A DNA stretch of 64,000 nucleotides from an uncultured Alphaproteobacteria bacterium (GCA_943787445.1 CALSML010000001.1:57408-121407), one strand, 5' to 3'; shown: positions 18,746 through 43,889, counted from the stretch's first letter. Notes: generated by a model from the sequence alone, not told the origin. Translations and numbers: made by a program.

Positions 18746-18746
18746 G

Positions 18747-20006: not shown

Positions 20007-20039
20007 GGGTTCGTCCTGCTTGTGGTTTCGTTCGTGCGT

Positions 20040-20285: not shown

Positions 20286-20323
20286 AACTCAAAGCCTACC
20301 TCAATTCGTCTCCACGCGTGTGC

Positions 20324-21769: not shown

Positions 21770-21875
21770 GGTCTTCCCTGAGTAAGTCGTCTCTGTTTGG
21801 ATTGGGCGCACTATGCCACAGCCGGACGCAAGACAAGAGTCCGACCGCAAGCGAATTCACCCGCGTGACTGGGCC

Positions 21876-22559
21876 CTAGGCGGCTTCGGCCGCCGCGCTG
21901 GCCCGGGCGTTCAAATCCTCGAAATCGTCCGGCCAGTTATCGGCCAGCCAGCGCAGATAGGTTTTCATATTCGCCGGGTCGATCTGCAGCGAGTTCTTGA
22001 TCTTGTCGACTTCGGGCTGCGCCTCGATGGTCAGCTTGAGGGAGTCGTTGAAGCGGTTGATCATGTTGAACATGCTGCAGATCAGCGTGAGTTCGACAAT
22101 CTCCCCCTCGTTGAACTGTGCCTGCACCCGCTCATAAACATCATCACGCGTCGCCGCGGTGTTCCTGGTCATGTGCTCGGCCCATTCGATGGCCGCGCGC
22201 TCGCGGTCATCGAAGAGGTCCGATGTCATGTAGTCGTCGGAGGACATCGCGATCACCTGTTCATGGGTGATCCCGGCGGCCGCCCCCAACGCCGTGTTGT
22301 GGGCGAAGCAGTATTCGCAGCCATTGATATGGCTGGTCTTGATGATAACCATTTCCTTGATCTTGCCCGAGAGGCGCACACCGGGCCATTCGCGCTGGTT
22401 GCCCGCCTGAAAGGGCAGAAACAGCATCGCCAGATAGGGCGCATGGGCCATGGTGCGATAGGCGTTCGGCACCCGGCCGATCATGCTGGTAACCGCGCCG
22501 AAGAAATCCTGCAGTTCCTCGGGGGCATTTTCCGGATTGATGACGGGTATTCTTGCCAC
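21876..22559 (-). CDS. Carboxymuconolactone decarboxylase family protein (AhpD-like). GTG start.
   Basis: RIPVINPENAPEE N-terminus and the HINGCEYCFAHNT motif, which is the AhpD-like CxxC/His region. Confidence 0.7.
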   Translation of the reverse strand: MARIPVINPENAPEELQDFFGAVTSMIGRVPNAYRTMAHAPYLAMLFLPFQAGNQREWPGVRLSGKIKEMVIIKTSHINGCEYCFAHNTALGAAAGITHEQVIAMSSDDYMTSDLFDDRERAAIEWAEHMTRNTAATRDDVYERVQAQFNEGEIVELTLICSMFNMINRFNDSLKLTIEAQPEVDKIKNSLQIDPANMKTYLRWLADNWPDDFEDLNARASAAAEAA

Positions 22560-22608
22560 GATGTTCTCTCCCCTTTTTCTGATTGTCCGGCGATCGGGTC
22601 GTGCGCCC

Positions 22609-23709
22609 CTAGAGCGCGCGCGCGTAGGTTGCCAGCTTGTCTTCGTCGACCTCCACACCCAGCCCGGGCCCGTCCGGCGTCGAGACATGACCGCCGACCA
22701 CGGCGATCGGATTGCGAACCACATCGGTGGCCAGATAGGGGGTGGTCGGGCTGACCCCCCAGGCCAGTGTCCGCGCGGGAAGCGGCCAGATGCAGCACCG
22801 CCGCGCTGGACACGCTGGTCTCCGCCGTCTTGCCGGCCAGGTTCACATTCATGCCCAGTTCGGCGAAGAGCTTTGTCGCCTCATGAGCCCGGGTGACGCC
22901 GCCCAGCTTGATCATCTTGACGCTGCCCCCCTGGGCCGCCCCCATCGCGTGATGACGACGCACGTCATCGAAACTGTGCAGGCCTTCATCGGCAGCAATC
23001 GGACAGGATGATTCCCCGGCGATCATCGCCATGCCTTCCACGTCATGCCCGTGAAGCGGCTGTTCGAGAAAATCGAGAACCGCACTGGCCCCCCGCGCGA
23101 ACGACACCGCTTCATCCCTGTTCCAGCCCTGATTGGTGTCCGATGACAGCTGGACCGCCCCGGCCAGCGCGTCGCCGATCGCATTGGTGCGTTCGATATC
23201 CTGATCCACGGGTTTGCCGCCGACCTTGATCTTCATGGCCGCATAGCCTTCGTCAGCGCCTTCGCGCGCATCCCCGACATCGGTCGCCAGATCGCCGGTC
23301 GCCAGCATCTTGACCACCGGCATGCGCGCACGCTGCACGCCGCCCAGCAGCTCGGCGACAGACATTTTCCGGGCCTTGCCGGCAAGATCATAAAGCGCGA
23401 TCTCAAGCACCGTCTTGGCGCTGGCATTACCATAGAGGCGCCAGTCCATTTCCTTCTTGTTGTCCATGAAGTCCGCCGGATCACGCCCCGTCAGGAACGG
23501 CGTCAGATAGCGGATCGCCGCGACCATGCTTTCGACCGTCTCCCCGGTCATCGCCGGTGAGGACGAGGCCTCGCCCCAGCCGACCAGCCCCGTATCGGTC
23601 TCGATCCGGGCAAACACATTCTCGGAGACCGAGATTTCGACCCCCGACATCTTAAACGGCCGCAGAAGCGGCAGATCGGCAATGATGGGGTCAATCCTGA
23701 TGATTTTCA
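22609..23709 (-). CDS. Mandelate racemase/muconate lactonizing enzyme (enolase superfamily) protein. Frameshifted near the C-terminus at a C6/G6 homopolymer (pseudogene or sequencing error).
   Basis: MKIIRIDPII...KIKVGG...LHLAAS is MR/MLE. After ...RADTGLG the reading frame becomes junk. The -1 frame gives a typical MLE C-terminus (GVSPTTPYLATDVVRNPIAVVGGHVSTPDGPGLGVEVDEDKLATYARAL*) ending near 22609. Confidence 0.75.
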
Positions 23710-23780
23710 TGGTGCGGAATTCCTGCTCACCCAATTCGCGTGTACTTCTACAATAAGGGGAAACCCGGCGGATGCCAGCC

Positions 23781-24812
23781 TCAAGCCGTTGCGCGCCGGG
23801 GAATGCCGCCAATCGTGACCCAGTGGTAGCGTTCATCGAGCAACGGCGAAAGTGGCCGTCGCACGTCATCCTCGAGCGCGATCCACAAACGCAGCAGCAG
23901 TCGTTTGCGGGCCGGTTCGTCCCAATCCTCGAACGGAGAGCGGCCATGAAGGGTCGTGTGGTTGTTGATGAACTGCATGTCGCCCGGCTCAAAGGTCATC
24001 GACAACCGCATCTCGGGACGTTCCGCCACCGAATGGGCGAATTCGAGCGCCGCCCATTGCGTGGGGCTGGGTGCCAGCTCTTCGCCATGGCGGGTGGTCG
24101 ACCGCACGAAGAACCGGTTGGTGAACCGCGACGTGATTTTGCCCGACGCGACGGAGAACATCGGCACCTGATACCAGGGCTTCTGTCCATCCGGCTCATC
24201 GCCGCGCCAGTCCACATTGATGGGTTCGTAGAGATGCGGGAGCAAATCCGGACGCTCCGCGCGAATGACATTGTGCATGGCCAACGCGCTAACGATATGG
24301 CTCTCGCCGCCCATCCGGGCATCGTTGACACAGAACAGGCCGAGGATATCGGCGGGCAACTGGTCGCAGTGGAACTGCAGCGCACCCGCCGTCTTGTACC
24401 CGCGCACATTGGCGTCATCCATCACGCCACCCTCATCCTGCACATAGCCGATCAGGTCGCCGCGCAGGCTCTGGGAGATCGACCGGCCCAGATGAGCGCC
24501 GATGCCCCAATAGATGAGTTCGCATTCCTCTGTCGTGTAGCGATCCCGGGGCAAGCCGCGCAGCAGCGCGACGCCGTATCCGTGACAAACCATGTCGCGA
24601 AGATGGGCCAGTCGGGCGCGCAGATGGTCGAGCGGAAAATCCGCCGTTGCAAACGGAACCTGCACGCCCCGCGACATCGCAACGTTCAGCGCGCCATCGA
24701 TCTCCGCGATATCCGAGTCATCAAGGTGGATGATCCAGTCATCCACAAGCTGCAGATTCCGGCCCAGCCAGACATCCGGTCCGTCCAGGTGATCCGTCAC
24801 CATATCGATCAT
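23781..24812 (-). CDS. TauD/TfdA family Fe(II)/2-oxoglutarate-dependent dioxygenase
   Basis: Length, the QFHCDQ...H region and overall TauD-like pattern. It is the first gene of the same-strand operon with the MLE, CMD and ALDH genes. Confidence 0.65.
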   Translation of the reverse strand: MIDMVTDHLDGPDVWLGRNLQLVDDWIIHLDDSDIAEIDGALNVAMSRGVQVPFATADFPLDHLRARLAHLRDMVCHGYGVALLRGLPRDRYTTEECELIYWGIGAHLGRSISQSLRGDLIGYVQDEGGVMDDANVRGYKTAGALQFHCDQLPADILGLFCVNDARMGGESHIVSALAMHNVIRAERPDLLPHLYEPINVDWRGDEPDGQKPWYQVPMFSVASGKITSRFTNRFFVRSTTRHGEELAPSPTQWAALEFAHSVAERPEMRLSMTFEPGDMQFINNHTTLHGRSPFEDWDEPARKRLLLRLWIALEDDVRRPLSPLLDERYHWVTIGGIPRRATA

Positions 24813-24989
24813 TCAGGTCATCCCCCACCGAACGGGCAATTGCAGCCCACAGGGTCATGAATCACGAGAGACCCGTCAAGTCGACTCCCGACGCGCATTG
24901 TCCTGTGTGTGACACGACAGTACCGTGACGGCCCGTCTCGTGATGAGCGGGTTCTTTCGCCGCCGGGGGCACGACACAATGGGACGATC

Positions 24990-26231
24990 ATGACCACGAC
25001 GGCCGGTGTGCGCGGTCTCCTGCGTGACGTCCAGTTCCTGCGCGTCTGGCTAGTCGGGATTTTCAGCGGTGTGGCCCGCTGGCTCGAAATGCTAGTCGCG
25101 GGCGTCTATGCCTTCGACACCACCGGCTCCCCCTTCCTTGTTGCCCTGCTGGTGATCCTGCGCATGGGCCCGCTCGTGGTCCTCGGTTCGGTCGTCGGCA
25201 CCTTCGCGGACCGCCTGCCCCCCAAGCTTCTGCTCAGCCTCACCATGGCCGGCGCCATGCTCGTGTCGGGCAGCGTCTTCGTGCTGTTCCTGACCGGACA
25301 GGATTCCTACTGGATCGTCGCCTTCGCCTCCTTCGTCTCCGGTCTGGTCTGGACCACCGACATGCCCCTGCGCCGCCGGGTCTTGGGGGACATCGCCGGG
25401 ATGGAGCGCGTCTCGGTGGCCATGGGGCTCGACGCCGCCAGCAACAATGGCACCCGCATGCTCGGACCTTTGCTGGGGGGCCTGATCTTTCAGTGGCTGG
25501 GAGCGGGCGGGGCCTATCTGCTCAGCACCGCGCTCTATGCCGCCTGCGTGGGATTGCTGATCTTCCTGTCCGTCCAGACCGGGCAGGCGGTTGCCACCCG
25601 TGCCGCCTCCCGGGCCCTTGACGACCTGCGGGCCGGCTTTGCCTATGTGATCCACAACCGGGATGTGATGCGCATCATGCTGGTGACGATCGTCTTCAAC
25701 CTCTGGGGGTTTCCGTTCCTCGCCATGATCCCGGTGGTCGGGCGGGACGAATTGCAGATCTCAGCCAGCCTCATCGGCGGCCTGACCGCACTGGAAGGCG
25801 GTGGCGCCTTTCTCGGCGCACTGATCATCGCGGCGCGGGTGCGGATCGCCAGTTACCGGCGCCTCTATTATTTCGGCATGCTGGGCTATCTGATCGCGGC
25901 CTTCACCGCAGGCTGGATGGCGGACGTGGTGCCCATGGCGCTGGTCTTCATTGTTGTCGGCCTGTGCGCAGCTGGGTTCTCCACCATGCAGTCCACGCTG
26001 ATCTACACGGTCGCCCCGCCGGAGATGCGCGGGCGCCTGTTCGGTGTGCTGGTGATCTGCATCGGCAGCGGCCTGATTGGGTTCACCAATATCGGCCTGA
26101 TGGGGGAATGGTTCGGCGGCTCGACCGCCATGCGCATCGTCGCGGCCGAGGGCCTCATCCCCCTGTTGCTGATCGGGTATGGCTGGCGCGAACTCTGGTC
26201 CCGCGATACCTATGACCGGGGCACCCGATAA
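24990..26231 (+). CDS. MFS transporter
   Basis: 12-TM MFS architecture (LRVWLVGIFSGVARWLEMLVAGVYAF...). Confidence 0.75.
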   Translation: MTTTAGVRGLLRDVQFLRVWLVGIFSGVARWLEMLVAGVYAFDTTGSPFLVALLVILRMGPLVVLGSVVGTFADRLPPKLLLSLTMAGAMLVSGSVFVLFLTGQDSYWIVAFASFVSGLVWTTDMPLRRRVLGDIAGMERVSVAMGLDAASNNGTRMLGPLLGGLIFQWLGAGGAYLLSTALYAACVGLLIFLSVQTGQAVATRAASRALDDLRAGFAYVIHNRDVMRIMLVTIVFNLWGFPFLAMIPVVGRDELQISASLIGGLTALEGGGAFLGALIIAARVRIASYRRLYYFGMLGYLIAAFTAGWMADVVPMALVFIVVGLCAAGFSTMQSTLIYTVAPPEMRGRLFGVLVICIGSGLIGFTNIGLMGEWFGGSTAMRIVAAEGLIPLLLIGYGWRELWSRDTYDRGTR

Positions 26232-26280
26232 CAACCCCTCTGGAAGTTTCAAACACCGGGGAGTTTGTTATGTTGCCCCC

Positions 26281-26604
26281 ATGGACATGATCGCGATCTG
26301 GTTTGGGGCCCTGATCCCCACATTGCTTCTCAGCCGCCTGACCCTGCTGCCCGTCAAACCGGAGCATCGCGGGCGCCCGTCTCGGCTGCTGTTGGCCCAC
26401 GCCATCGCCTTCGCGCTCTGCGTTCTGCTGCTGGGCCTCACCGATGGCGAGGGGGGAATCGGCGGCCGCATCGCAAACATGTTCGGCGACGGACTGGTCT
26501 CCGGCGCGCGGGTCTATGCCCTGCCCCAGATCTTCTGGTTCATCCTGGAATGGGTCTGGCGCGCCCGCACTGCCCGGCAACAGGTCCGGGTCGAAGACGA
26601 ATAG
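26281..26604 (+). CDS. Hypothetical small membrane protein
   Basis: MDMIAIWFGALIPTLLL... hydrophobic segments. No recognised motif. Confidence 0.35.
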   Translation: MDMIAIWFGALIPTLLLSRLTLLPVKPEHRGRPSRLLLAHAIAFALCVLLLGLTDGEGGIGGRIANMFGDGLVSGARVYALPQIFWFILEWVWRARTARQQVRVEDE

Positions 26605-26617
26605 TTTTTCAGGAAAA

Positions 26618-26693
26618 TGGTGCCGCCTGCAGGATTCGAACCTGCGACCCCCGCATTACGAATGCGATGCTCTACCAACTGAGCTAAGGCGGC
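26618..26693 (-). tRNA. tRNA-Thr (anticodon CGT), 76 nt including encoded CCA
   Basis: Reverse complement GCCGCCTTAGCTCAGTTGGTAGAGCATCGCATTCGTAATGCGGGGGTCGCAGGTTCGAATCCTGCAGGCGGCACCA folds as a cloverleaf. The acceptor is GCCGCCT/AGGCGGC, the anticodon loop is TTCGTAA, and the T-arm is GCAGG-TTCGAAT-CCTGC. Confidence 0.9.
26636..26662. repeat. Left copy of 27-bp perfect direct repeat TCGAACCTGCGACCCCCGCATTACGAA (inside tRNA-Thr, anticodon stem to T-loop). Putative att core.
   Basis: Exact match to 31133..31159. Confidence 0.8.
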
Positions 26694-27111
26694 GCCGATT
26701 TGCGAGGCCTTACCTATGTAAGGCCGTCGATTGGGTCAAGCGATTTGCGTGTCGGCCGGACTGAAGTTGCCCAAAGCCTTATTCACCAACATTTCCCGGT
26801 CGGAATTGCCGTCAGAGACCATAGCGATTTAAGGGTCAAATTTTTGGTTTTTTCTGCTTGTTCCACATCCTTGGTTGATGTTGATCCCCGTATTATACGC
26901 TCACCCGAATCCGATGTGAATCGACTAGTCAGTGGAACAGGATTGGAACAAGGGTTTTAGGGTCAGGAGAAAATTGTCGCTGTGACACGGTTCCATCTCA
27001 GGACGTCACGACAACCCCCACCCCGGAGGGACAAAAATCGACCCCCTGCCGAATATATATATTGGAAGATGGCCCGGATAAATTTTAGGCCAGAGTAACC
27101 AGAGTTCCCGT

Positions 27112-27756
27112 TTAGTGCCTCAGGCTCTCACACGCGACACCGTCACGATCACCATCAAGTCGATGAGGATCACCGGGCTTGGCTGCCTCGAAGAAGCTCT
27201 GAGCTTCTTGCCACGTCTGAAAATCTCCACAGTCTTTGTCGCGAGGCATTTGGCCCGGTTTGGAATTTCCTCGCCTACCTCGCCGCCATTGCTCTGGAGC
27301 GACAAAACTTCCTGACCAAATGCCGAGTCCTGATTTCTGTGCTTCCATCTCTTCGATGACGTAGTCGGTCGAGTAGCGCCGGTAGGCTATCGCCCAACCG
27401 GTAGCAACCATCTCGCGGTTAAGTTCAACTCCGAGCGGTCCCCCTATCGAGCAGACAGCAATAATTCGACCGTAACGATCTTTGTCGATCTCTGAGCAAT
27501 CGACCCAATGGTTCTCAACCAAGGCAGCCAGAGCAGCTGTTGCCTCGAAACCACAACGCCAATCCTGACCATTGCGCGAACAAACTTGATCGCTCTCAGG
27601 CGCATCAATTCCGTGAAGGCGAACAGCGACCGAACCAAATTTGAGGGAGTCTCCGTCCACGACACGCGGTTTGCCGCTGATGGCCTCAGCGCCTTGAACG
27701 CCAATAGCGATCACGCTGATTGCAGTCGCGCAAAATAGTTTGAAAAGGTGAACCAT
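27112..27756 (-). CDS. Secreted thermonuclease (staphylococcal nuclease-like) with C-terminal Excalibur calcium-binding domain
   Basis: Signal peptide. RVVDGDSLKF...VRLHGIDAPE...DRYGRIIAVC...GWAIAYRRY is SNase-like. The C-terminal DKDCGDFQTWQEAQSFFEAAKPGDPHRLDGDRDGVACESL is an Excalibur motif. Confidence 0.8.
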   Translation of the reverse strand: MVHLFKLFCATAISVIAIGVQGAEAISGKPRVVDGDSLKFGSVAVRLHGIDAPESDQVCSRNGQDWRCGFEATAALAALVENHWVDCSEIDKDRYGRIIAVCSIGGPLGVELNREMVATGWAIAYRRYSTDYVIEEMEAQKSGLGIWSGSFVAPEQWRRGRRGNSKPGQMPRDKDCGDFQTWQEAQSFFEAAKPGDPHRLDGDRDGVACESLRH

Positions 27757-27797
27757 GGCTTTCAGGGACTCATCGTTCTGACCGACCCGACGTCCTA

Positions 27798-28103
27798 TCA
27801 GTCACTCTTCGTACAGTGGCTTTGCCACAACGTCGATAGCTGGGTCATCTCGGTCAGCGCAGCCCTGTAACGCTGGTCCATAATGTCGTAATGAGTTTGC
27901 AAATCCTCATTTGCAACATTGGGCTGACGCATATCGCGCATCAGAGAAATTAAGACGGTCATATGCGATGAGGTTTTCCGCATCTGCGACGCCAACGTCG
28001 GGCACATCTGCGGGTCGATAAGAGGTACCTCGTCACTTGCAGATGATCTCCCTCCCATGAGCAGCAGTCCCGAAACGCAGAGGGTGGAAATTAAGAGCCT
28101 CAT
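27798..28103 (-). CDS. Hypothetical secreted small protein
   Basis: N-terminal signal peptide MRLLISTLCVSGLLLMGG. No recognised motif. Located within the island, upstream on the same strand as the nuclease. Confidence 0.4.
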   Translation of the reverse strand: MRLLISTLCVSGLLLMGGRSSASDEVPLIDPQMCPTLASQMRKTSSHMTVLISLMRDMRQPNVANEDLQTHYDIMDQRYRAALTEMTQLSTLWQSHCTKSD

Positions 28104-28359
28104 AACAAATTCCTATTAGATGAATCCTTCTACTTTATAGACGACAACCAGAGACCTCTCAGCTGGGCCCAGGAGAGCCATACAAAGGCTTTGTGACTGT
28201 ATCTAAGGAAGGTAACTGACGAAAGACCAGACCTCTTACAGAGCTATAATTTTGCCTATTTATCCCAGCGTTTCCAGTGCTTTGCGGGTATTCTCTCCAG
28301 AATACGAAAAGGCCCCCGGAGATTTGTCTCACGAGGGCCTGATCATATTTCTTATAGGG

Positions 28360-28674
28360 TTAACCTGCAGCGGTATACGCACTTGCTGCTGCTTGAGCCG
28401 CCGAAACTACTTTCGGCATATCAATTTCCTCGAGGTAGTCAGCCTCTTCGAAAGCACCACTCGCCTTAATTGCAAGAACAAGACCCATCGCCGTTTCATG
28501 GTCTTTGACCTCTACGCGGACAACGACGTCGTATTTCCCTCGAACGAAGGCGATGTAGTCAGATGTGCCACCAACCGCATCCATCAGTTTTTTGATCGCA
28601 GCTTCTCGATCTGAGCCACCAATCAGACCCTTCAGCGCATGCGGGGCATATTTTCCTAGAAGTAATGCTTTCAT
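28360..28674 (-). CDS. GYD domain-containing protein
   Basis: About 104 aa, MKALLLGKY...GGTSDYIAFVRGKYDVVVRVEV...AMGLVLAIKASGA pattern consistent with the GYD family. A probable terminator hairpin lies downstream (about 28303..28345). Confidence 0.55.
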   Translation of the reverse strand: MKALLLGKYAPHALKGLIGGSDREAAIKKLMDAVGGTSDYIAFVRGKYDVVVRVEVKDHETAMGLVLAIKASGAFEEADYLEEIDMPKVVSAAQAAASAYTAAG

Positions 28675-29151
28675 AATGTCCTCTCTGAATTATCTACCTA
28701 CGGATAACTATCTACACCTAACTCGTGAACGAAAGAGAACCTAATTTTTAACAAAGGCACTCCGTTTGAGGCTGAACGTAACGCTACAGCATCCTCAGGT
28801 CGTATGGTCGAGAAGCTGATCGACTCGTACCCAATGTCGGTCGCCTCAGGCAGCCTCGCTGTGCCTCACAATGCACTGGCAACTCTGGAGCGTCTGCAAA
28901 ATCTTGAACCTGCAAGACGGTTTGAGGTTCGTAACCCTGATCCTGATGAGATAGACCGACAGATCGCTCACTACCTTGATGTCATTGGGACTGGCCAAAA
29001 CAAAAGGCCCCCGGACAGGATGCATTTCAGTGAGCCTTAGATTGTGACCAATTCCGAACGTCACACCAAAAGTCTGTTACAGACTTATAAATATTTTGAT
29101 TTGGTTATTTTATGGAACTCCATTGGGCAGGTTCCATATTGCAACTCAGCA

Positions 29152-29415
29152 TCAAGTGTTCTTGACCACCTTAATCCCCTTTCCTCCCCGACCACGAGAC
29201 TTATAAATCGTATAGCCCTTTGCGCCTAAGTTGAGTGATTCAACGCCTTCGGCCGAAGAGAGTATACTTGCAATTTTCTCTGCAACTTTATCCGACTTTT
29301 CTAACTTAGAATTGGCCTTCCGCCATTCATCAAATGCCTTTTGTCCTAATTCGTCGCCTATTGATTTCTTCAAAGCGTTTAATTTGCGAATTTCGCCTTT
29401 GGTCAAATCTGACAT
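29152..29415 (-). CDS. Hypothetical Lys-rich small protein
   Basis: 87 aa ORF with an AT-rich promoter-like region upstream. No recognised motif. Confidence 0.3.
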   Translation of the reverse strand: MSDLTKGEIRKLNALKKSIGDELGQKAFDEWRKANSKLEKSDKVAEKIASILSSAEGVESLNLGAKGYTIYKSRGRGGKGIKVVKNT

Positions 29416-29576
29416 ATCTACCTTCTAGTTGAATTTAAAAAATAAGATTATAGGACTTTTTTTGATGAGATTCAAAATAAAAATTTTGACCAACAAAGAT
29501 GTTAGTCCCATTTTGTTGGATTACTAATCATGTTTAGTTTTTTCATCAGGTATCAAACACGGGAGTCCAAAATAAT

Positions 29577-29954
29577 ATGGTTAATTCACTGACAGGAGCA
29601 CTCGCTGAGGGCGATCTAAGCCTCATAACTCTTAAGGCGCTGCTGGATAATAGCTTCGATTCAATCCTAATCACGGATTCAACCAAGGCTGGAAAAATTC
29701 TTTATACCAATAACGGTTTTAAGGTTTTGACCGGTTACTAAACAAAAGAAGTGATTGGGAAAAACTCCCGTATTTTGCAAGGCACGGCCACCGACAAAAA
29801 GGTACTGGAGCGTCTCCGCAAGGCCCTCACGGATGGAAAGCCGTTCGAAGGCCGAGCGATAAACTACAAGAAGAACGGAACTCCCTTCATCATGCATTGG
29901 CGCGTTGTCCCGGTTAAAGTCGGTCGCAATACAAAGGTATGGTTGGCGATCTAG
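29577..29954 (+). pseudogene. Short LOV-like PAS domain gene interrupted by in-frame TAA (29739..29741). The LOV cysteine is replaced by Ser (NSRILQG).
   Basis: ITDSTKAGKILYTNNGFKVLTGY-*-TKEVIGKNSRILQGTATDKKVLERLRKALTDGKPFEGRAINYKKNGTPFIMHWRVVPV parallels LOV ITD...[27 protein letters not shown]...NYRKDG. Both parts are in the same frame (29577 and 29751 both ≡ 0 mod 3). Confidence 0.6.
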
Positions 29955-30127
29955 CGAGAAGGTTCGGCAGTCAAGTAGTCTTGGCGTCGCCGGTTCAAAA
30001 ATGACCTTCAAAAGTTTGTCATTAAGCTAACCCAGCATTCGGGCAAGGTCTTCCGGTCTCAGCTGGACGTACCGCTGAAGCATCCTGAGGTCCTTGTGGC
30101 CGGTTATCGCTGCCACCTCCATCACGC

Positions 30128-31012
30128 CTAGCCCTTTCTCGAAGAACCGGTTGTTGCCTCATGTCTGAGGTCATGGAACCGAAGACCTGTTATGTCGGCT
30201 CTTCTGGTTGCCCGGCGCCATAGTCCCTTCAGGGCCTCAGGATGGACTGGGATCACCCCACCAGAGATAGACCTTGGTAAGGCCTCGATGGTTTGTCGTG
30301 CCACTGGAGACAGCGGGACATCTCGGCTTGTTCCATTCTTGGTCAGTGCGAGATGGACATAGTTCTGGTCGAGGTGGAGATCATCCCAATCCAGACCGAG
30401 TAACTCACCACGTCGCATGGCTGTCTCAATGGCTAGGGTGACCAGAGGGGCGAGGTAGGGATTGTCTGATGCCTGACATGCCATCATCAATCGTTGCCCC
30501 TCATCACCCTCCAGCCTTCGAGTTCTCCCCTTGGGCTGTGTCGGCTTTCGGAGGTTGGCTGCGGGATTGCCGGGAAGATTGAACCCCCACTCGGACATCG
30601 CAATACGGATAGCGTGGCTGATGATCGAAAGATCACGATTACAAGCAGATGCACCGACTTCGCTCAGTCTTTCGTCTCTATACCGAGCTAGGTGGCCGGA
30701 GTTTAGTTTGGAGAGCCAAATATTCCCAAGCCATAATTTTTGTAGTCTCGCGACAACATAAGATTCTTTATCATAACCCCTCTTCAGAGGCGAAATCTCT
30801 CGTCCATAACGGTCCAGTATATCCCTGACCATACAGTCATTGGTGATTAGGTGACCAAGGTCGATTTGTCGTTCTGTCTCAATCGCCCATTTTTGCGCAT
30901 CTAAATGTAAGTCGAACGTTTTTGTTTGGCTTGGTATTCCAAGACGCCTTATTCGAACTGTGTACCGGCCTTTTCGTTTCATTATTGCTGGCAATTCCAA
31001 CTCCGTTGTCAC
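30128..31012 (-). pseudogene. int: Tyrosine-type site-specific integrase, C-terminally frameshifted. The catalytic Tyr region lies out of frame.
   Basis: Core ...GELLGLDWDDL...VHLALTKNGTSRDVPL...GLRFHDLRHEAT, then a premature stop. The -1 frame continues (N)RFFEKGLGVMEVAAITGHKDLRMLQRYVQLRPEDLARMLG*, which is the typical integrase C-terminus with the RY catalytic tyrosine, ending about 30048. An alternative ATG start (MKRKGRYT) is at 30982. Confidence 0.75.
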
Positions 31013-31132
31013 AGGAGTGGTACAAGCAAATACCCCTATACATTTTCCATCTGTCGGCGAACGGGGGTCGCCGGGAAAAATGCTTAGAAATCAAAACTTA
31101 ATGGCTGAGAAAGTGCATTTGGTCTGCGTGAC

Positions 31133-31159
31133 TCGAACCTGCGACCCCCGCATTACGAA
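31133..31159. repeat. Right copy of the 27-bp direct repeat. It lies within a degenerate tRNA-Thr-like remnant (about 31120..31196). Putative attR.
   Basis: Exact 27/27 match. The flanks (tggtctgcgtgac ... gacagtgctcta ... gaagcactaggaagcc) align imperfectly with the tRNA 3' and 5' parts. Confidence 0.75.
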
Positions 31160-31259
31160 GACAGTGCTCTAAAAAAAGAAGCACTAGGAAGCCTATGCTG
31201 TTTTTCACATAACCTACTGAACAATCGAGAGAATCATATCCTGTCCGTCGTCATATAAA

Positions 31260-31706
31260 TTGAAACAATCTGCGGCCTGGCAGATGGTCGCCCGGCCGGA
31301 TCACTGTTTGTCCCCAGCATTCCGAAAAGGGCTGGAGGAACTGGAGGCCAGAGGTCTGCATTTCGAACTGCAGGGATTTGCCAATCAGTTCGAGGATTTT
31401 GCCACACTTGTCTCGGGGCATCCGGGGTTGAAATTCTGCCTCGTGCATGCCGGACTGCTCACTGGCGACGGCCCCGCCACATATGATGTCTGGTACCGGG
31501 CGCTCGAGCCGCTGGCCGCGCTGGACAATCTCTGGGTCAAATGTTCCGGCGCCAACAATGTGCACTGGGGCGCGCCCCGTCCGGTCGAGGCCGTCGCGCG
31601 ACAGTACAATGCCCTGATCGATCTGTTCGGGGTCGCGCGGTCAGCAGCGGACCAGCAGGCCTTTTTTCATGATGCTGCAGCGGCGTTTTATCGACTCGAT
31701 GAATAA
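31260..31706 (+). pseudogene. 5'-truncated amidohydrolase-2 family gene (C-terminal ~150 aa only) at the island boundary
   Basis: LKFCLVHAGLLTG...NLWVKCSGANNVH resemble C-terminal motifs of the PF04909 amidohydrolase family. The N-terminal ~140 aa are absent, and the GC shift occurs at the ORF start. Confidence 0.5.
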
Positions 31707-31715
31707 CCAAGACGT

Positions 31716-32462
31716 CTAATTTAGCAGTGTTTTCTTTAGCCAGGGGCCGACGAGATCAATGATGGCGTCCTCGCGCCCTTTGTAGAAATGGTCACAATTC
31801 TCGACGACCACCACATCGCAGGGACCGTTGCTGCCAGCTGCAAAGTCTTCGGCCGGGTAGGATTCGCGGCTCTCTTCGTCACCACGAATATAAAGCGTCG
31901 GGCAACTAATTTCGGGCGCGGTATCAACGGTACTGGGCATTGTCGTCAGCCGATCATAGTAGGATTCCGCTGATGCGACATACCACCGGCCGGGCAGAAG
32001 CATCAGCTCTGACCCGCGGCCCTCTGCAATCATCGCTTCAGCCTGGGCGCGGAGTTCGGGTGTGCGCCCGCCGCCGAGAAGTCCGGTTTTCATTGCAAGG
32101 GTTTGCGCTGTGGAACTTCCGGCATGCGCGGAGAGCAGAACCAGTGCCGGAGTTTCGGGATGTTTTGCCACGTGCTGGACACTCAGGAATCCGCCATTGC
32201 TGTGACCGATGACGACAGGCGCGTCATACCCCTTGTCGCGCAGCCAGCTGGCTGCGTATTCGTTGTCCGCGATGGCTTCAGCGGTCGTTTGAAACGCCGC
32301 GCCCTCAGCGGCCCGGCTGTCGCGGACACTCAGGATGTCGTGACCGCGCCGGTTGAACGCCAGACAGGCGAAACCCAGGGCTGTCAGCGAGGGCGGCCCC
32401 GACGATCGGGCCTTTATCCGGGAGATGCCAGGCCCCGTCGAGCGGCAGTGTATCGGTCTCAT
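31716..32462 (-). CDS. Alpha/beta hydrolase fold protein
   Basis: GHSNGG nucleophile elbow and alpha/beta hydrolase length. The N-terminus is uncertain. Confidence 0.6.
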   Translation of the reverse strand: MRPIHCRSTGPGISRIKARSSGPPSLTALGFACLAFNRRGHDILSVRDSRAAEGAAFQTTAEAIADNEYAASWLRDKGYDAPVVIGHSNGGFLSVQHVAKHPETPALVLLSAHAGSSTAQTLAMKTGLLGGGRTPELRAQAEAMIAEGRGSELMLLPGRWYVASAESYYDRLTTMPSTVDTAPEISCPTLYIRGDEESRESYPAEDFAAGSNGPCDVVVVENCDHFYKGREDAIIDLVGPWLKKTLLN

Positions 32463-32589
32463 TGGAAATGAGTTCGGTTCGCAAGAGAAGTGCTCCTGAA
32501 TGAAAGTGTGGACTGGTCCAGCTGCCAGACAATTCGTACTCTAGTGAATTCAGTGTTCGCGATATATGAACAGCAATGCGGGGGTGCCA

Positions 32590-33356
32590 TGCACGAACAG
32601 ACTATCTCGGTCGAGACAACCGACGGCATCATGAAGACATTTCTGGTCCATTCCGAGGAGGGTGGCCCCTTTGCGCCGGTCGTGCTGTTCATGGATGTCT
32701 GGGGCATTCGCGAGCAGTTGTTCGATATCGCCCGGCATATTGCTTCCGTGGGCTACGCGGTTGCCGTACCGAATCTCTACTACCGGAAGGGCGAGGTCTT
32801 TTTCGATTATCGTCAGCCCGATGGACGGACCACGTCCCTGAAAGACCTGCCCGAGGATGAGCAGCAGAAAATTCAGGAGTTCCGGTTGCATCTGAGTGAT
32901 GCCATGGCGGTGGCTGATACCGGCGCGTTGATGGCGCGTCTGGGCACGGAGGATGCGATCCGTCCCGGGCCGGTGGGGTCCATCGGCTACTGCATGGGCG
33001 GGCGGCATGTGCTGCGTGTTGCTGCGGCCTATCCGGAGTTGTTTCAGGCCAGCGCAAGTTTGCACCCCACCCGTCTGGTGGTTGAAGGTTCCGATTCACC
33101 GCATCGGGATGCGGGTGAAATTCGCGGCGAATACTACAGCGGGTTTGGCAGTGAGGATCACTACACGCCGCCCGAGGTCATCGCGGGGGTCCGGGCCGCC
33201 TTCAACGGTCAACCTGCAACCTATTCCGATACGCTCCACGAAGGCGTGCCCCATGGCTACGCAATCCCCGACCGGGATGTCTATGCCAAGCACGCAGCCT
33301 TTCGGGACTGGGAACTGATCTTCGCGATGTATGACCGGGTGCTGCGCGGACGTTAG
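32590..33356 (+). CDS. Dienelactone hydrolase family protein
   Basis: VVLFMDVWGIREQLFDIARHIASVGYAVAVPNLYYR and the GYCMGG nucleophile motif. Confidence 0.75.
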
Positions 33357-33360
33357 ACGT

Positions 33361-33903
33361 TTATCCTTGGTTCAGGGCTGCGACCTTGTCCTGCATGGGT
33401 TTGCCCATGAAGTCGATCTTGCCGATCTGGACGCCTTCGGCGCGGAGTAGATCATAGGCCGTCGTGACATGGAAAAAGACCTGGGGGTTGGCGAAGTGAA
33501 CCAGATGCTCCAGAGCGCCAAAGGTGAGTTCTTCCAGGCGCGTCTTGACCTGTACCTCCCGGTCCGGATCTCCCTCCATCGCGTCGGCGGAGATGCCGGC
33601 GAAAAACGCGATGGTATCAGCAATGCGTGTCTGCGCGCTGGCGATGTCCGCATCCGGTTCCATGTTGATTTCCGGCGGCGCGACGTTGGCAAGGCGGGCA
33701 ACCGCGAGCGTGGCATGAAGGCAGGCCTGGCGGATTTGCTCGGCCAGATTCAGCATGTCCGGCGCAAACCGGCGGCCCATGAGTTCACCTTCGTCGAGGC
33801 CGGATGCCCCGGCAAATTCCGCTGCGCGGCCAAGCACAACATCAAGGCTGGTCAGCATCTGCTGGTAGGCGGGGACGGAAATGGCATACATCGAAATGGA
33901 CAT
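33361..33903 (-). CDS. DUF1993 domain protein
   Basis: MSISMYAISVPAYQQMLTSLDVVLGRAAEFA is the typical DUF1993 N-terminus. Confidence 0.6.
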   Translation of the reverse strand: MSISMYAISVPAYQQMLTSLDVVLGRAAEFAGASGLDEGELMGRRFAPDMLNLAEQIRQACLHATLAVARLANVAPPEINMEPDADIASAQTRIADTIAFFAGISADAMEGDPDREVQVKTRLEELTFGALEHLVHFANPQVFFHVTTAYDLLRAEGVQIGKIDFMGKPMQDKVAALNQG

Positions 33904-33928
33904 GTTCTGTGTTCCCGAAATTCTGGGG

Positions 33929-34852
33929 TTAGTCGAAACTGAAACCAATGGTCCGACAGCGGAAATAGAGGCCACCATCCTGCACCACGAGGCTGAGCAT
34001 CATTTCGTCCCCCTCGTTGTGATGTTCGTGGCGTTCGGCCGGCGGTGTGATCATCAGCGCGTATTGCTGCCAGTCGAGACGATTTCCCTCGATCACGGAA
34101 TACACGCCCTGAGACTGGATAGGCAGAGTCAGAGCAACCGAATTGTGCCGGTGGGGGCGCTGGACATTTCCCGGGCCCAGCGCGTTCATGGCCAGTTTGA
34201 TGGTGGGATGGGCGGCATCAGCTTGGCCATCTTTCTCGCTGGTCAGATGCAGGGCCATTCCCGAGGCATTCGGGTCCGCCTTCTGGGCTTCGCGCACCGC
34301 TTTCATCTGCGCAAGAATATTTGCCAGAGGGTAGCGCACCGCCTGAGTCGGAGCGTCTTCCGGAGCCGGTGTGGCCAGACCATGAAAGGCGAGTTCGGGC
34401 TCGTTGGTGGTCTGGAACAGGACAGTATCATCCGCGCCGGCGGTCAGGATGGTCTCTCCGCCACCGGGCAGCGAGAATACATCACCGGCCTGCCACGGGA
34501 AGCTCTCTGCACCCTTGGTGGCCTGTCCGGCACCCTGGATCACATAGTAGAACTCGCCGCTGGCCGGGAATGAGCCGGTCAGGGATTCGCCCGCGCGAAT
34601 GCGTGCGTAACGCGCCAACATGAGGGGTGTCGTGGCTGGCGTGGTAAGGCCGATCTGTGCGCTGATATCCAGGGTGATCCAGTCGGTTGTGTTGGTGGGT
34701 GCCATGGCCTGATCGCGTTCATCGGCAAAGATGTGTTGCGGGATCGCCGGGCGTTCCACCTTGAAGATATTGGCAGGGCTGTAATAGCGCGCACGGCCGA
34801 CAGGTGTGTCGGCTTGTGCCAGTGTGTTGGCCTGTGGTGTTGATCCGTCCAT
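33929..34852 (-). CDS. Bicupin protein (gentisate 1,2-dioxygenase-like cupin)
   Basis: Two cupin modules, with HRHNSVALTLPIQSQG in the second module. Confidence 0.6.
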   Translation of the reverse strand: MDGSTPQANTLAQADTPVGRARYYSPANIFKVERPAIPQHIFADERDQAMAPTNTTDWITLDISAQIGLTTPATTPLMLARYARIRAGESLTGSFPASGEFYYVIQGAGQATKGAESFPWQAGDVFSLPGGGETILTAGADDTVLFQTTNEPELAFHGLATPAPEDAPTQAVRYPLANILAQMKAVREAQKADPNASGMALHLTSEKDGQADAAHPTIKLAMNALGPGNVQRPHRHNSVALTLPIQSQGVYSVIEGNRLDWQQYALMITPPAERHEHHNEGDEMMLSLVVQDGGLYFRCRTIGFSFD

Positions 34853-34959
34853 GGCTGATCCTCCCCGATGACAGGCGAAGTCTAGTCCAACCCGGGGCCT
34901 ACACCAATGGACTTGACCCGCTGGTGTCAGCCCCGTTCACTGGGATTGAGGAATTTTTC

Positions 34960-36135
34960 ATGACCGAAGCTGCCGTAATCTCATCTGATCTGAAGTCTCG
35001 TGCCGAAGCCATGGTGCCGCACCTGATGGCCCGTGCCACGGAAACCGAAGCTCTGCGTCGGATTCCCGATGAGACCATTGCCGAACTCAAGACGGCCGGT
35101 CTGCACCGCATCTGTCAGCCGGCCCGGCTCGGCGGGTTCGAAACGCCCCTTGATGAGGCCTGCGATATTGTTGCAACCCTCTCCGGGGGCTGTTCTTCGA
35201 CCGGCTGGGTCACCGGGGTCTACACCGATCATCAGATTCTGGTTGGCATGTTCGATTCGAAGGCCGCTGATGATGTCTGGGGTGACGATCCTGACAATCT
35301 GGTGTCCGCCGGGTTCACACCATCCGGCAAGGCCGAACCGGTCGAAGGGGGCTGGCAGGTGACCGGCCGCTGGGGTTGGTCGAGCGGCTGCGATCATGCG
35401 GGCTGGCTGATTGTGGTGACACTCCTGCCAAGCGGACCGGAGGGTGAGGCGGAACCGAATTATTGTCTGGTGCCCCGTTCGGACGTGACGATCACCGATA
35501 ACTGGCAGGTGATGGGTCTGGCCGGAACCGGCAGCAAGACCATTTCGGTCGAGAATGCCTTTGTGCCAGCTTATCGAACATTGCCGGGACGCCTTGCTGC
35601 GGCGGGCGGGGCGCAGCGCGGCCAGGCTGATGCACCGGCGTTGTACCGTCTGCCCCATCCACCCTGCGTGCCGTTCCTGTTGGTCACCCCGTCACTGGGA
35701 ATTGCCGAAAGCCTGCTGGCACTGCTGACCGAGGAAATGTCGACCCGCGCCTCACGGGGTGTTCCGATTGCGGAGTATCAGAGCCTGCAATTGCATATTG
35801 CGGAATCCGCCGCTGAAATCGACAGCGCCCGCCTGTTGCTGATGCGTGATACGGGAGAAGCCATGGCGGCGATGGAAGCCGGGTTCGAGATCACGCTCAC
35901 GGAGCGGTCACGCAACCGCCGCGATCATGCCTATGTGGTTCGCCTCTGCCGGCAGGCAGTCGATCGCCTGTTCACGGCTGTGGGCGGACAAGGTGTGTTT
36001 CTCGACAATGTGGCCCAGCGAAAGTTTCGAGATATACATGCCATGAGCGGGCATCTTGCCCTCAACTGGGATATTGCGGGAACAACCTATGGGCGCGTTG
36101 CCCTGGGTCTCGAGCCTGCGGCAAGGCTGATCTGA
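34960..36135 (+). CDS. Acyl-CoA dehydrogenase-fold flavin-dependent monooxygenase (group D, HsaA/HpaH-like oxygenase component)
   Basis: ACAD-like architecture: an N-terminal helical domain, a middle beta domain (QVTGRWGWSSG), and a C-terminal helical domain. RBS GAGGAA. Confidence 0.65.
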   Translation: MTEAAVISSDLKSRAEAMVPHLMARATETEALRRIPDETIAELKTAGLHRICQPARLGGFETPLDEACDIVATLSGGCSSTGWVTGVYTDHQILVGMFDSKAADDVWGDDPDNLVSAGFTPSGKAEPVEGGWQVTGRWGWSSGCDHAGWLIVVTLLPSGPEGEAEPNYCLVPRSDVTITDNWQVMGLAGTGSKTISVENAFVPAYRTLPGRLAAAGGAQRGQADAPALYRLPHPPCVPFLLVTPSLGIAESLLALLTEEMSTRASRGVPIAEYQSLQLHIAESAAEIDSARLLLMRDTGEAMAAMEAGFEITLTERSRNRRDHAYVVRLCRQAVDRLFTAVGGQGVFLDNVAQRKFRDIHAMSGHLALNWDIAGTTYGRVALGLEPAARLI

Positions 36136-36139
36136 ATTC

Positions 36140-36523
36140 ATGTTCTATGAGAATCACTCCACGCTGGAGATGGTTGGCCAGCTGATGGTCGCGACCCTGT
36201 TCGTCGGCATGCTGGCGATCAATGCAACCACCAAGGTCAAGCAGCACGCGGACCGTATGGCCGTGATGGGCATTCCGATGCCAATGGTCACTTTGTGGGC
36301 CGGGTTTGCGCTACAGGCGGTAGGGGGCGTCATGGTGATGCTCGACTGGCATACCCATATCGGCGCCATCATTCTGATCGTGTTCACCGTGCTGGCGAGC
36401 GCGATCTTTCATCGCTTCTGGACCATGGATGACCCGCTGCGGCGTCACATGCACCTGTCGATCCTGTTTTCGAATGTCGCCGTGGTGGGTGCGCTGCTGT
36501 TGCTGATGCAGTTTCCGCGTTAG
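36140..36523 (+). CDS. DoxX family membrane protein
   Basis: 127 aa, four TM segments with a DoxX-like pattern. Confidence 0.65.
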   Translation: MFYENHSTLEMVGQLMVATLFVGMLAINATTKVKQHADRMAVMGIPMPMVTLWAGFALQAVGGVMVMLDWHTHIGAIILIVFTVLASAIFHRFWTMDDPLRRHMHLSILFSNVAVVGALLLLMQFPR

Positions 36524-37446
36524 CGGTTTTTCGCCGCTTCCAGATATCGGGTGTCGATATAATGCTCGGGACCGTGCAGATCGTCCGGTGCCGGGCCGAA
36601 CTCGGCACGCAGGTCGAGCACCTTGGCAATGCCCGGCATATCGAAACAGCCATCGCGCTGAAACCCGGTCTCGGCATCCAGAAACACGTTGCAGGCTGCA
36701 TCGGCCACGTCGCGCGACATCTGGGGCATATTGGCGGTGATCAGGTCGAGGGATTCAGAACGATTCCCGGCGTCGCAGCACCAGTTCACAGCTTCCAGAT
36801 AGGCGGCGATGAAGCCGGCGAGGGTTTCGGCGTTCTCTTCGGCCCAGGCAATGCGGGCGCCGCCCACAAGGCCCTGATAACTGTCGAGCACATCTGAGGC
36901 CCGGGCCAGAATATGGTGGCCTTTGGATGCGCCCAGCACCTCGAAGGGAGTGACCTGAAGGGTGCCCTTCTGTTCCGGGTGCTCCATCATTTCCTGCCAG
37001 CGTTGCAACACGCCGCCGGTGGACATCCACTCGATTTCGTCTTCGCGGATTCCGTTGAGAGCGAGCATGCGGCGCAGCACGAAGGCGAAACCGGTGGTCA
37101 TGGCATCGACGGTCAAAATCTTTCCGCGCAGATCCTCGAAGCTCTGAATATCGGGTTGCACCACGAGGCGCAGGAACGCATCGTCGGACCCCATGAAGGC
37201 AAAGAAATCCGTGTCACCTTCGGCGCAGACTTCGCCCTGTTTTTCCCGATAAGCGACAATGTTGTCGATGGCGGTCATGGCGATGTCGAACTTTCCGGCG
37301 GCCAGTCCGGTCAGCTGTTCGACCGAATTGGGGGTCATCACAAGCTCGGTTTCGATCCCTCGCCGGGCGAACATGCCGTGGGCGGCACCGGCCCAGAGCG
37401 GCAGGTTGATGGCGCCCGGAAATACGTTGATAATCAGCTTCTGCAT
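36520..37446 (-). CDS. NMT1/THI5-like (SsuA/TauA-type) substrate-binding-fold protein without obvious signal peptide
   Basis: Periplasmic-binding-protein type II fold motifs. The N-terminus lacks a signal peptide. Confidence 0.55.
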   Translation of the reverse strand: MQKLIINVFPGAINLPLWAGAAHGMFARRGIETELVMTPNSVEQLTGLAAGKFDIAMTAIDNIVAYREKQGEVCAEGDTDFFAFMGSDDAFLRLVVQPDIQSFEDLRGKILTVDAMTTGFAFVLRRMLALNGIREDEIEWMSTGGVLQRWQEMMEHPEQKGTLQVTPFEVLGASKGHHILARASDVLDSYQGLVGGARIAWAEENAETLAGFIAAYLEAVNWCCDAGNRSESLDLITANMPQMSRDVADAACNVFLDAETGFQRDGCFDMPGIAKVLDLRAEFGPAPDDLHGPEHYIDTRYLEAAKNR

Positions 37447-37534
37447 GGAATGATTCCCCCTCGGTTCCGAAATATCGGTATGCCGTCATATTCGGATTTG
37501 CGCTTCGGTCTGAAAAGCGTTTTGTTGTTGAACT

Positions 37535-38131
37535 ATGGCTGAGGACGTGACGATTTTCTATGACGGCAGCAACACGATTGACGTGCGCCCGGGGCGTGCG
37601 CTGCGGCTGACCGGCGAGGCCTATCCACTGTTTCGACCGCCTGATCCGGCCAGCGTTGCCGATCCGGCCGACTGTCTGGAATTTCTCAAGAATCTGCATC
37701 TGAGTCTGTGCCCGGTCTTCGATATTCGGCTGCGTCGGTGGATGGGGCGCTACTTCGATTCAGTGGCGGAACTGGCGGATCAACAGGCCACAGAGCTGGC
37801 CCCAGTTGCCGGTCTTGATCCGGCGACCTCCCATCGTGCGTGGTGCTACGCGGCCTATCGGCCACTTTCGAATACAGTGTTTACCTGTGATGGTCAGCGG
37901 CACGCGGAACCGGTCCTGCTGTGGCTGGCTGACGGGCCGCTGGCGATCCGGTTTATACCGAGTGGTGCACCGGAAACCCTGCGGACGGTTGTTCTGGGAG
38001 ACGCGGAACTCGCAGCACCGGCAGCGACGTTCCTGGCCGCGCTCGGCGGCGACATCGACCGTTACTGGTCCGATGTCGCCGCTCCACGGCATCCGTTTGT
38101 GCGCAGCGCCCTGTCGGGGCTACGCGCTTAG
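37535..38131 (+). CDS. Hypothetical protein
   Basis: 198 aa ORF with coding-like GC3. No recognised motif. Confidence 0.35.
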   Translation: MAEDVTIFYDGSNTIDVRPGRALRLTGEAYPLFRPPDPASVADPADCLEFLKNLHLSLCPVFDIRLRRWMGRYFDSVAELADQQATELAPVAGLDPATSHRAWCYAAYRPLSNTVFTCDGQRHAEPVLLWLADGPLAIRFIPSGAPETLRTVVLGDAELAAPAATFLAALGGDIDRYWSDVAAPRHPFVRSALSGLRA

Positions 38132-38134
38132 GCG

Positions 38135-39346: not shown

Positions 39347-39390
39347 CTTTACTTCTCCTCAGTGGGATTTATCCGACCGTCTAGGGCCGG

Positions 39391-43327: not shown

Positions 43328-43347
43328 GACTTATCCTCGCGGCGGCT

Positions 43348-43797: not shown

Positions 43798-43811
43798 GGA
43801 ATTCCTCTTTA

Positions 43812-43852: not shown

Positions 43853-43889
43853 CTTGACGGGGCGTGATTAAAATTGCCGTTGGTCTAGT

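Follow-up and report, generated by a model that had tools for sequence, protein, structure and literature searches.

The window analysed here, a 64,000-nucleotide stretch of DNA from an uncultured Alphaproteobacteria bacterium, contains an AT-rich island next to its tRNA-Thr(CGT) gene. We consider that this island (26750–31270) is probably the immobilised remnant of a small (about 5–9 kb), tRNA-targeting, phage-satellite-like element, which would have reached its present state through canonical integration, a tandem array and a later inversion. In marine Alphaproteobacteria, elements of this family are common; they carry genes for a tyrosine integrase and for the small terminase subunit (TerS). 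An earlier, sequence-only reading had described a foreign, AT-rich, decaying tyrosine-integrase element tied to tRNA-Thr(CGT) through a tRNA-derived repeat, and that description is supported; its views of the boundaries, the geometry and the right-hand flank had to be revised.

A strain-specific island beside tRNA-Thr(CGT)

The extent of the island follows from comparison with a near-identical strain that lacks it. This island-free strain is represented by one 197-kb metagenome contig, on which two loci match the window: L001, found (along with two shorter contigs) through the membrane protein adjoining the tRNA, and L122, found through the amidohydrolase fragment and lying in the reversed orientation. 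L001 is 98.4% identical to window positions 18722–26749, the tRNA and the 56 bp upstream of it included, and L122 is 97–98% identical to positions 31271–41224. The 4521 bp between them (26750–31270) are present in neither locus. Because the block is absent from a 98%-identical strain, it is, by this comparison, foreign and strain-specific DNA. The contrary possibility, raised with the original description, that the AT-rich segment is ancestral core genome does not agree with its absence from that strain. A composition profile confirmed the reported fall in GC content, from about 0.61 on both sides (0.616 on the left and 0.600 on the right) to 0.487 over 26750–31270.

The boundaries obtained in this way (26749/26750 and 31270/31271) do not coincide with the 27-bp direct repeats that had been taken to bound the island. 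Of the limits proposed earlier (26618 and 31270), the right one stands, whereas strain comparison moves the left one to 26750, 57 bp upstream of the tRNA. On the right, the foreign block extends 111 bp past the repeat. Just inside the left junction is an island-specific spacer (26750–26851) without a homologue in any of the loci that we fetched (numbered with the prefix L) or elsewhere in the window. Just inside the right junction is an AT-rich segment, here called x (31160–31270), which occupies the place in which one would look for the 5′ half of the tRNA and the upstream DNA of the host; it matches the tRNA only in TAGAGCA, and no copy of it was found elsewhere in the window or in any fetched locus.

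The functional tRNA-Thr(CGT) gene (26618–26693, minus strand; Rfam tRNA score, 73.8 bits) is the sole tRNA called by ARAGORN in the window and is the copy distal to the integrase gene (int). On its 3′ side are host genes for a 141-residue membrane protein and an MFS transporter. The 27-bp core, TCGAACCTGCGACCCCCGCATTACGAA, occurs in exactly two exact copies, one within the tRNA (26636–26662) and one about 4.5 kb away beside int (31133–31159), as first reported; the number of matches expected in shuffled sequences is zero, even with three mismatches allowed. In tRNA numbering the core runs from position 32, the first anticodon-loop base, to position 58 in the T loop (58 to 32 along 26636–26662), and imperfect similarity between the two copies reaches past it on both sides, to 48 nucleotides at 85% identity.

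The far copy lies within a non-functional tRNA-like stub (31115–31175). On its 5′ side TAGAGCA matches the tRNA, after which the anticodon-stem strand reads CTGTC against TCGCA in the tRNA; on its 3′ side, GTCACGCAGACCA stands where tRNA-Thr has ATCCTGCAGGCGGCACCA. The stub lacks acceptor and D arms, and its anticodon and T stems contain mismatches. ARAGORN calls no tRNA here and Rfam gives no match at E ≤ 1, so the far repeat is not part of a second genuine tRNA gene, an outcome that would have told against an integrated element. A candidate origin of the far copy from a fragment of tRNA-Gly(GCC), the tRNA at that position in relatives, was rejected, as the two show no specific similarity. 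Between the core and int runs the int-proximal arm of the attachment (att) site (31013–31132, minus strand), which includes the diverged tRNA 3′ part GTCACGCAGACCA and is 96.6% identical to L115. This arm also holds an inverted copy of core bases (31062–31074 against 31138–31150; CGGGGGTCGCCGG versus CCTGCGACCCCCG), 63 nucleotides from the core; it is kept in L115 and may be a candidate integrase binding site.

An element family with two layouts

Homologues of the integrase number in the thousands, in marine metagenomes and in alphaproteobacterial and Rhodospirillaceae metagenome-assembled genomes. The contexts of int in the relatives fall into two layouts. In the forward layout, a tRNA on the same strand lies directly upstream of int: tRNA-Pro(CGG) in L090, L093, L095, L096 and L103; tRNA-Val (CAC or GAC) in L098, L100–L102, L106, L124 and L125; tRNA-Ala(CGC) in L104; and a tRNA-Thr(CGT)-like sequence in L099. 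The order is a tRNA or tRNA-like copy, int, cargo, a conserved end segment of about 320 bp, a second tRNA copy and the host downstream genes, the second complete copy being seen where the contig is long enough. Two complete tRNA copies are present in L095 (tRNA-Pro, in a 102-bp repeat at 100% identity) and in L104 (tRNA-Ala, in a 110-bp repeat at 96% identity). These loci show that, in the forward layout, the int-side attachment site is a copy of the target tRNA with some upstream bases, so that integrated relatives are flanked by two tRNA or tRNA-like copies.

In the reverse layout (L092, L094, L004 and L089), a 3′ fragment of tRNA-Pro on the opposite strand lies beside int and the intact tRNA is at the far end. 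Identity to the tRNA in these relatives starts exactly at position 32, which is also where the core in the window starts. A tRNA-Pro-derived att site upstream of int is found in either orientation within one integrase clade (L004, L089, L092 and L094 versus L090, L093 and L095).

Read along int, the window has the tRNA-like stub first, then int, the cargo, the end segment, the spacer and tRNA-Thr, and last the downstream genes of the host. Since this order is that of the forward layout, an island located 5′ of the functional tRNA is what the family leads one to expect. The geometry had been called atypical; its order in fact matches that of the forward-type relatives L095 and L104, with the functional tRNA as the int-distal copy, and by these comparisons it fits the architecture of the family and needs no special explanation. 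The end segment (26852–27173) is 89–97% identical to its counterparts in L095, L090/L091 and L104, with weaker similarity in L092 and L094, and in relatives it always immediately precedes the int-distal tRNA copy. The region upstream of tRNA-Thr (26694–26749, minus strand) holds a promoter-like pair (TTGACC...TAGGTA) and a hairpin, is kept in L099 and L105, and differs from the island-free strain by one mismatch.

What distinguishes the window from L095 and L104 is its int-side copy, which is no gene and consists of the 27-bp core with an element-type 3′ side and a non-tRNA 5′ side. In L099 the native tRNA-Thr 5′ half is joined to an element-type defective 3′ end (GCGTG-TTCGAGT-CACGC, then AAACAG) and is followed by int, the int-side hybrid being already non-functional there. 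In L105 an int remnant is followed by an intact tRNA-Thr and the host downstream genes, with HemY upstream. Contigs with close integrases (L124–L126 and L121) gave Val- and Pro-type sites and no further Thr-type att site.

The island shares int, a PAS gene, a GYD gene, a TerS remnant, a nuclease gene and the end segment with L104, L095, L090, L094 and L126, most fully with L104. One Pro-type forward element was recovered from seven samples (L090, L091 and L116–L120) as circular permutations, at least 99.9% identical, of a single 5305-bp molecule; the terminal repeats of these contigs (123–141 bp) are k-mer-sized. The molecule encodes the integrase, a 168-residue open reading frame (ORF), a small terminase (PF03592), ORFs of 163 and 101 residues and a 513-residue protein (phrog_4756), and it also holds the 320-bp end segment and an intact tRNA-Pro(CGG). 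To judge from these assemblies, it looks like a minimal satellite-like element, free or concatemeric. The relatives have intact TerS genes and gave no matches to structural (capsid) genes.

The integrase of the window is a mosaic. Residues 126–328 are 97–99% identical to Val-type (L098) and Pro-type (L090 and L089) integrases, whereas residues 61–125 are only 37–69% identical when L098, L090, L089 and L099 are compared. This pattern suggests that target specificity may reside in an exchangeable N-terminal part of the protein.

The gene content of the island is that of a decaying element. Adjoining the end segment is an intact ORF for a nuclease with SNase and Excalibur domains and a signal-like N terminus (27112–27756, minus strand), which has a homologous region in L104. 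It is followed by a 101-residue ORF with no family match (27798–28103, minus strand; homologous DNA in L104) and by an intact ORF for a GYD-domain protein (28360–28674, minus strand; 82–88% identical DNA in L094 and L126). The nuclease and GYD cargo of the first description were both recovered by Pfam. Beyond these is a 237-bp ORF (28804–29040, plus strand) with 73–82% DNA identity to the 3′ part of intact TerS genes in L090, L095, L118 and L126; it represents only the C-terminal part of TerS, the N-terminal Terminase_2 part being missing, and the intact TerS of relatives matches PF03592 and phrog_51. An 87-residue ORF with no family match (29152–29415, minus strand) has 86% identical DNA in L113.

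The PAS gene (29577–29978, plus strand) is a pseudogene with two in-frame stops; its homologues in L089, L094 and L126 are intact and encode 133 residues. Pfam found PAS_9 only, just below the cut-off. The window copy reads GKNSRILQG and the intact homologues read GQTPRILQG or GKTPRILQG, which differ from the LOV adduct motif GXNCRFLQ. The PAS protein that travels with these elements is thus conserved at 133 residues and natively lacks the adduct-forming cysteine (TPRILQG); because the family has TPRILQG where LOV domains have NCRFLQG, it is LOV-like in fold only. The disruption that had been noticed in a LOV-like gene is therefore real, whereas a LOV cysteine is something that the family natively lacks.

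The tyrosine integrase gene (30027–31012, minus strand) is likewise a pseudogene. Its Phage_integrase ORF (30128–31012) matches PF00589 at E = 1.2e-17 and retains HDLRH. A search for relatives with an intact integrase, as had been proposed, yielded a best homologue that is 97% identical (L115), relative to which a 1-bp deletion near 30151 is the only indel; the disruption reported earlier is thereby confirmed. The frameshift displaces the C-terminal 45 residues, including the catalytic tyrosine, and restoring the frame gives GHKDLRMLQRY, with that tyrosine, and a stop at 30027. The element is immobile: int is frameshifted, TerS is cut down, replication genes are gone altogether and rearrangement has affected one of the att flanks. 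The genes for the nuclease and the GYD protein and the two small ORFs are still open. The 48 nucleotides at 28754–28801 share 73% identity with the int 3′ end (30045–30092); similar extra int-end remnants are present in L104 and L126 and hint at past recombination between elements.

A proposed integration route and a 110-kb inversion

Past tRNA-Thr, L001 continues with a Maf-like pseudogene, HemY, hemD and hemC, none of which is in the window. L122 carries YbaK, tRNA-Gly(GCC) and a split amidohydrolase, followed by hydrolase, DLH, DUF1993 and cupin genes in the order seen in the window. In the island-free contig the two flanks of the island lie at about 23.3 kb and about 132.9 kb, on opposite strands; tRNA-Thr is intact there and the block is missing, but the flanks are about 110 kb apart and inverted. 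By this comparison, the strain of the window and the island-free strain have about 110 kb in opposite orientations; the island lies at one of the junctions of this inversion, and the breakpoint in the window is at 31270/31271, within the amidohydrolase.

Several results point to the lineage of the window as the one in which the inversion probably occurred. GC skew is −0.049 on the left of the island and +0.041 on the right, and the island-free contig keeps one sign. L105, a more distant relative, keeps hemD and HemY beside tRNA-Thr; about a dozen relatives (L012–L023) keep tRNA-Gly beside the hydrolase and DLH genes; and L009, from another sample, is 99.9% identical to the window across the right junction. 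The cumulative GC skew of the window has its minimum at the island, being negative to the left and positive to the right. A replication origin was considered for this minimum and rejected: the skew of the island-free strain is one-signed across both regions, and the switch arises because of the inversion.

The sequence-only reading anticipated an empty site in which tRNA-Thr would adjoin an intact amidohydrolase. No such site exists: what comes after tRNA-Thr in the island-free strain is the Maf-like pseudogene and then HemY, and the amidohydrolase of that strain stands beside tRNA-Gly and is already split into two ORFs. Damage to this gene, attributed at first to erosion of the element, instead marks an inversion breakpoint in a gene already split in that strain. 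As a whole, the first reading pictured a single element on the 5′ side of the tRNA, with the 27-bp repeats as its exact ends and the amidohydrolase eroded locally. An exact direct repeat with int beside one copy, and low GC content between the copies, are what that picture predicts, yet we regard it as very improbable. The right flank is an inverted 110-kb segment and not the native neighbour of tRNA-Thr, the amidohydrolase is already split in the strain without the island, foreign DNA overruns the right-hand repeat, and the 5′ side of the stub contains no decayed host tRNA half: host DNA nearby is 97% conserved, and here only TAGAGCA matches.

The account that we favour has three steps. The element would have recombined with the host tRNA-Thr at the shared core. 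The int-side copy would then have lost its host-side flank, most likely because two elements lay in tandem, head-to-head, and this copy formed the junction inside the pair. Finally, the 110-kb inversion, with one end in the already broken amidohydrolase, would have moved both the neighbouring element and the native upstream DNA away from the site. The T stem is informative on the first step: both core copies in the window have GCAGG, as the host does, whereas the closest relatives, L115 and L099, have GCGTG paired with CACGC. The presence of GCAGG in both cores favours a real exchange with the host tRNA, by recombination or gene conversion. For the second step, L094 provides a model: in it a reverse-type element and the remnant of a forward-type one lie head-to-head with a single junction in common, which consists of an element arm, the tRNA from position 32 onwards, a forward-type arm and an int remnant. 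The stub in the window is structured likewise. Segment x begins with GAGCAC next to the core, as do the arms in L004 and L089.

Other candidate identities for x, and for the left junction, were rejected. As a reverse-type arm, x aligns no better than shuffled sequences, and only GAGCAC is common with L004 and L089. As a diverged tRNA 5′ half with its promoter, it gives an anchored score that 9 of 3000 shuffles reach, or about 93 of 3000 without TAGAGCA, which is too weak. A crossover upstream of the tRNA was considered through att-like homology at the −57 junction, which was not significant.

The main alternative, which we think unlikely, is a non-canonical insertion. Here, tRNA-Thr and its 57-bp upstream region would be native and never have recombined, the stub would be the unrecombined att site of the element, and a circle opened about 110 bp from the core would have been joined 57 bp upstream of the cognate tRNA; the joining may have been the same break-repair or template-switch event as the inversion. 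Such an event would explain why the match to the island-free strain covers the tRNA and the next 56 bp upstream, with one mismatch, and ends there, and why both flanks of the stub differ from the tRNA, as those of the element's own attachment site (attP) would. Joining 26750 to 31270 gives a circle laid out like the 5.3-kb Pro-type molecule (end segment, spacer, tRNA-like site, int). In addition, a stretch of nine bases at the right junction, GCGGCCTGG, is identical to what the host has immediately past the left junction, and at the right-hand position the native amidohydrolase has GCCGCCTGG. This match fits a microhomology join; however, GCGGCCTGG can also be read as amidohydrolase with one single-nucleotide difference. 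Landing 57 bp from the cognate tRNA without use of the att core would be a remarkable coincidence, and no significant att-like homology is present at that junction. The host-type GCAGG of the core, in place of the GCGTG of relatives, implies exchange with the host tRNA, and L105 independently has the order of int followed by an intact tRNA. A non-canonical insertion would imply a clean join to CGGCCTGGAATG at the second inversion junction.

An assembly artefact, in which a chimeric contig joins the tRNA-Thr and DLH regions through island-like repeats, is in our view the least probable explanation. Contigs of related strains do break in or beside the island (L003 stops at 26673, and L009 does not begin until 31079), and the left junction is without independent support. 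The right junction, however, is reproduced at 99.9% identity in the independent sample of L009, and the left side, with its end segment, spacer, upstream region of the tRNA and tRNA in that order, shows the family architecture of L095, L104 and L105, which a random chimera would not give.

Canonical integration followed by tandem formation and inversion therefore remains our preferred account, and several observations weigh against it. Strain comparison sets the left junction 57 bp upstream of the tRNA and not in the core, and over the 87 bp from the core to that junction the window and the island-free strain disagree at one base only; with a single mismatch over this length, an origin of the tRNA 5′ half and promoter from the element requires an arm nearly identical to the host, or later homogenisation. 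Segment x has no significant similarity to reverse-type arms or to any fetched locus, and its origin from a tandem neighbour is proposed by analogy with L094 and from the GAGCAC motif. The putative satellite life style is deduced from the gene content of relatives and from circular assemblies, and no relative turned up in a viral contig collection, by either an att-pattern search or an integrase search. No contig independent of the window spans the left junction, a search with the nuclease protein having given no exact record, and the other end of the inversion lies beyond the window.

To the right of the island, the amidohydrolase remnant (31271–31706, plus strand) is 97.3% identical to L122 from L122 position 10384 on. 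Its Amidohydro_2 fragment covers profile positions 126–211 of 289; compared with L122 and other relatives, about 86 bp are also missing from its interior, at 31641. The N-terminal 128 codons of the gene, the counterpart of L122 10001–10383, would be expected about 110 kb further to the right, beside tRNA-Gly. An alpha/beta hydrolase pseudogene (31716–32532, minus strand), which belongs to the inverted host segment and not to the island, has a deletion of about 57 bp at 32397. Given these two deletions, several genes to the right of the island are pseudogenes in the lineage of the window.

Two further differences lie outside the island. At window positions 18722–18740, the island-free strain has an extra 2.1 kb (L001 380–2512), which encodes a GST and two uncharacterised ORFs. 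The direct repeat GAT(G/C)GCCGGCATGG, 14 bp long, borders this DNA on both sides and is present once in the window; from the alignment, this difference is a deletion or insertion between direct repeats. A second patch of low GC content (0.44–0.49) at 42000–45000 spans the TctA and TctC tricarboxylate transporter genes, and L018–L023 align to it at lower identity than to the surrounding region.

Relation to known systems

The result for the island is mostly clarifying: the layout of the family is shown, and the integration route of this copy is deduced. The 110-kb inversion explains both the apparently eroded flank and a change in GC skew that, without it, might pass for a replication origin. 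The family at large may be more worthy of attention than this dead copy. It forms a natural series in which near-identical catalytic domains are combined with differing N-terminal domains and tRNA targets, which is relevant to the evolution and re-engineering of integrase specificity.

The rearrangement has partial counterparts elsewhere. In tandem arrays of integrative elements at one att site (PMC7192596), an internal junction consists of an arm, the shared core and the next arm. This is what is seen in L094 and what we propose for the stub in the window, with the difference that the putative neighbour is not present in the window and would have been carried off by the inversion. The large integrase-linked inversions of Thermococcales involving pTN3 (Cossu et al. 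2017, PMC5495485) resemble the present one, which likewise breaks at an element integrated next to a tRNA-derived site. Here, by contrast, the second breakpoint lies in a protein-coding pseudogene without tRNA-like sequence, with at most 6–9 bp of microhomology, and a causal role for the integrase is not indicated.

In gene content and size, the relatives resemble known satellites of marine bacteria. VEIMEs have monomers of <5 kb to 16.8 kb, some with small terminases, and occur in Pelagibacter and other Alphaproteobacteria (Eppley et al. 2022, PMC9618062). Like VEIMEs and PICMIs (PMC10803314), the relatives are about 5.3 kb, encode a tyrosine integrase and TerS with no capsid genes detected, come from marine Alphaproteobacteria and are found as circles or concatemers. 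The likeness is one of gene content and size; the relatives are known from assemblies alone, none of them in the viral contig collection, and their circular or concatemeric assembly is compatible with packaging, although not specific to it. The window copy, in contrast to VEIMEs and PICMIs, has lost the terminase N terminus and any replication gene. The family may nonetheless add alphaproteobacterial members to the small marine phage satellites.

The island itself is an ordinary dead tRNA-associated tyrosine-integrase element of the standard kind. Like other tRNA-targeting integrative elements, it has a tyrosine integrase at one end, a tRNA-derived direct repeat, foreign composition and absence from a near-identical strain, and its tRNA identity begins at the anticodon loop. 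An anticodon-loop sublocation class was reportedly set out by Williams in 2002. More generally, integrative genetic elements such as genomic islands and prophages insert at tRNA genes by means of tyrosine integrases and have a piece of the tRNA in their attP (Mageeney et al. 2020, PMC7192596). In the textbook element, the 3′ part of the tRNA comes from attP, with the intact gene at the int, or upstream, end, whereas in the window and in L105 the intact gene is downstream and int-distal. Forward-type relatives carry a whole tRNA copy with 28–57 upstream bases, so that both ends can be complete genes (L095 and L104), and the family combines both att orientations in one integrase clade with a mosaic integrase.

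A broader reading of the family can be offered only tentatively, and we would not expect all of its parts to hold together. In this reading, a single clade of closely related integrases may drive a set of minimal, satellite-like elements of about 5.3 kb in marine Alphaproteobacteria. Their attP would consist of a whole tRNA gene and the region upstream of it, and the working tRNA of the host could be the int-distal copy, with a 5′ half and promoter supplied by the element. The clade would retarget at least five tRNAs (Pro-CGG, Val-CAC, Val-GAC, Ala-CGC and Thr-CGT), in both att orientations, by swapping the N-terminal 125 or so residues of an integrase whose catalytic part is 97–99% identical, and its tandem arrays would seed large inversions. 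If this is true, the int-distal working tRNA is the mirror image of the textbook arrangement.

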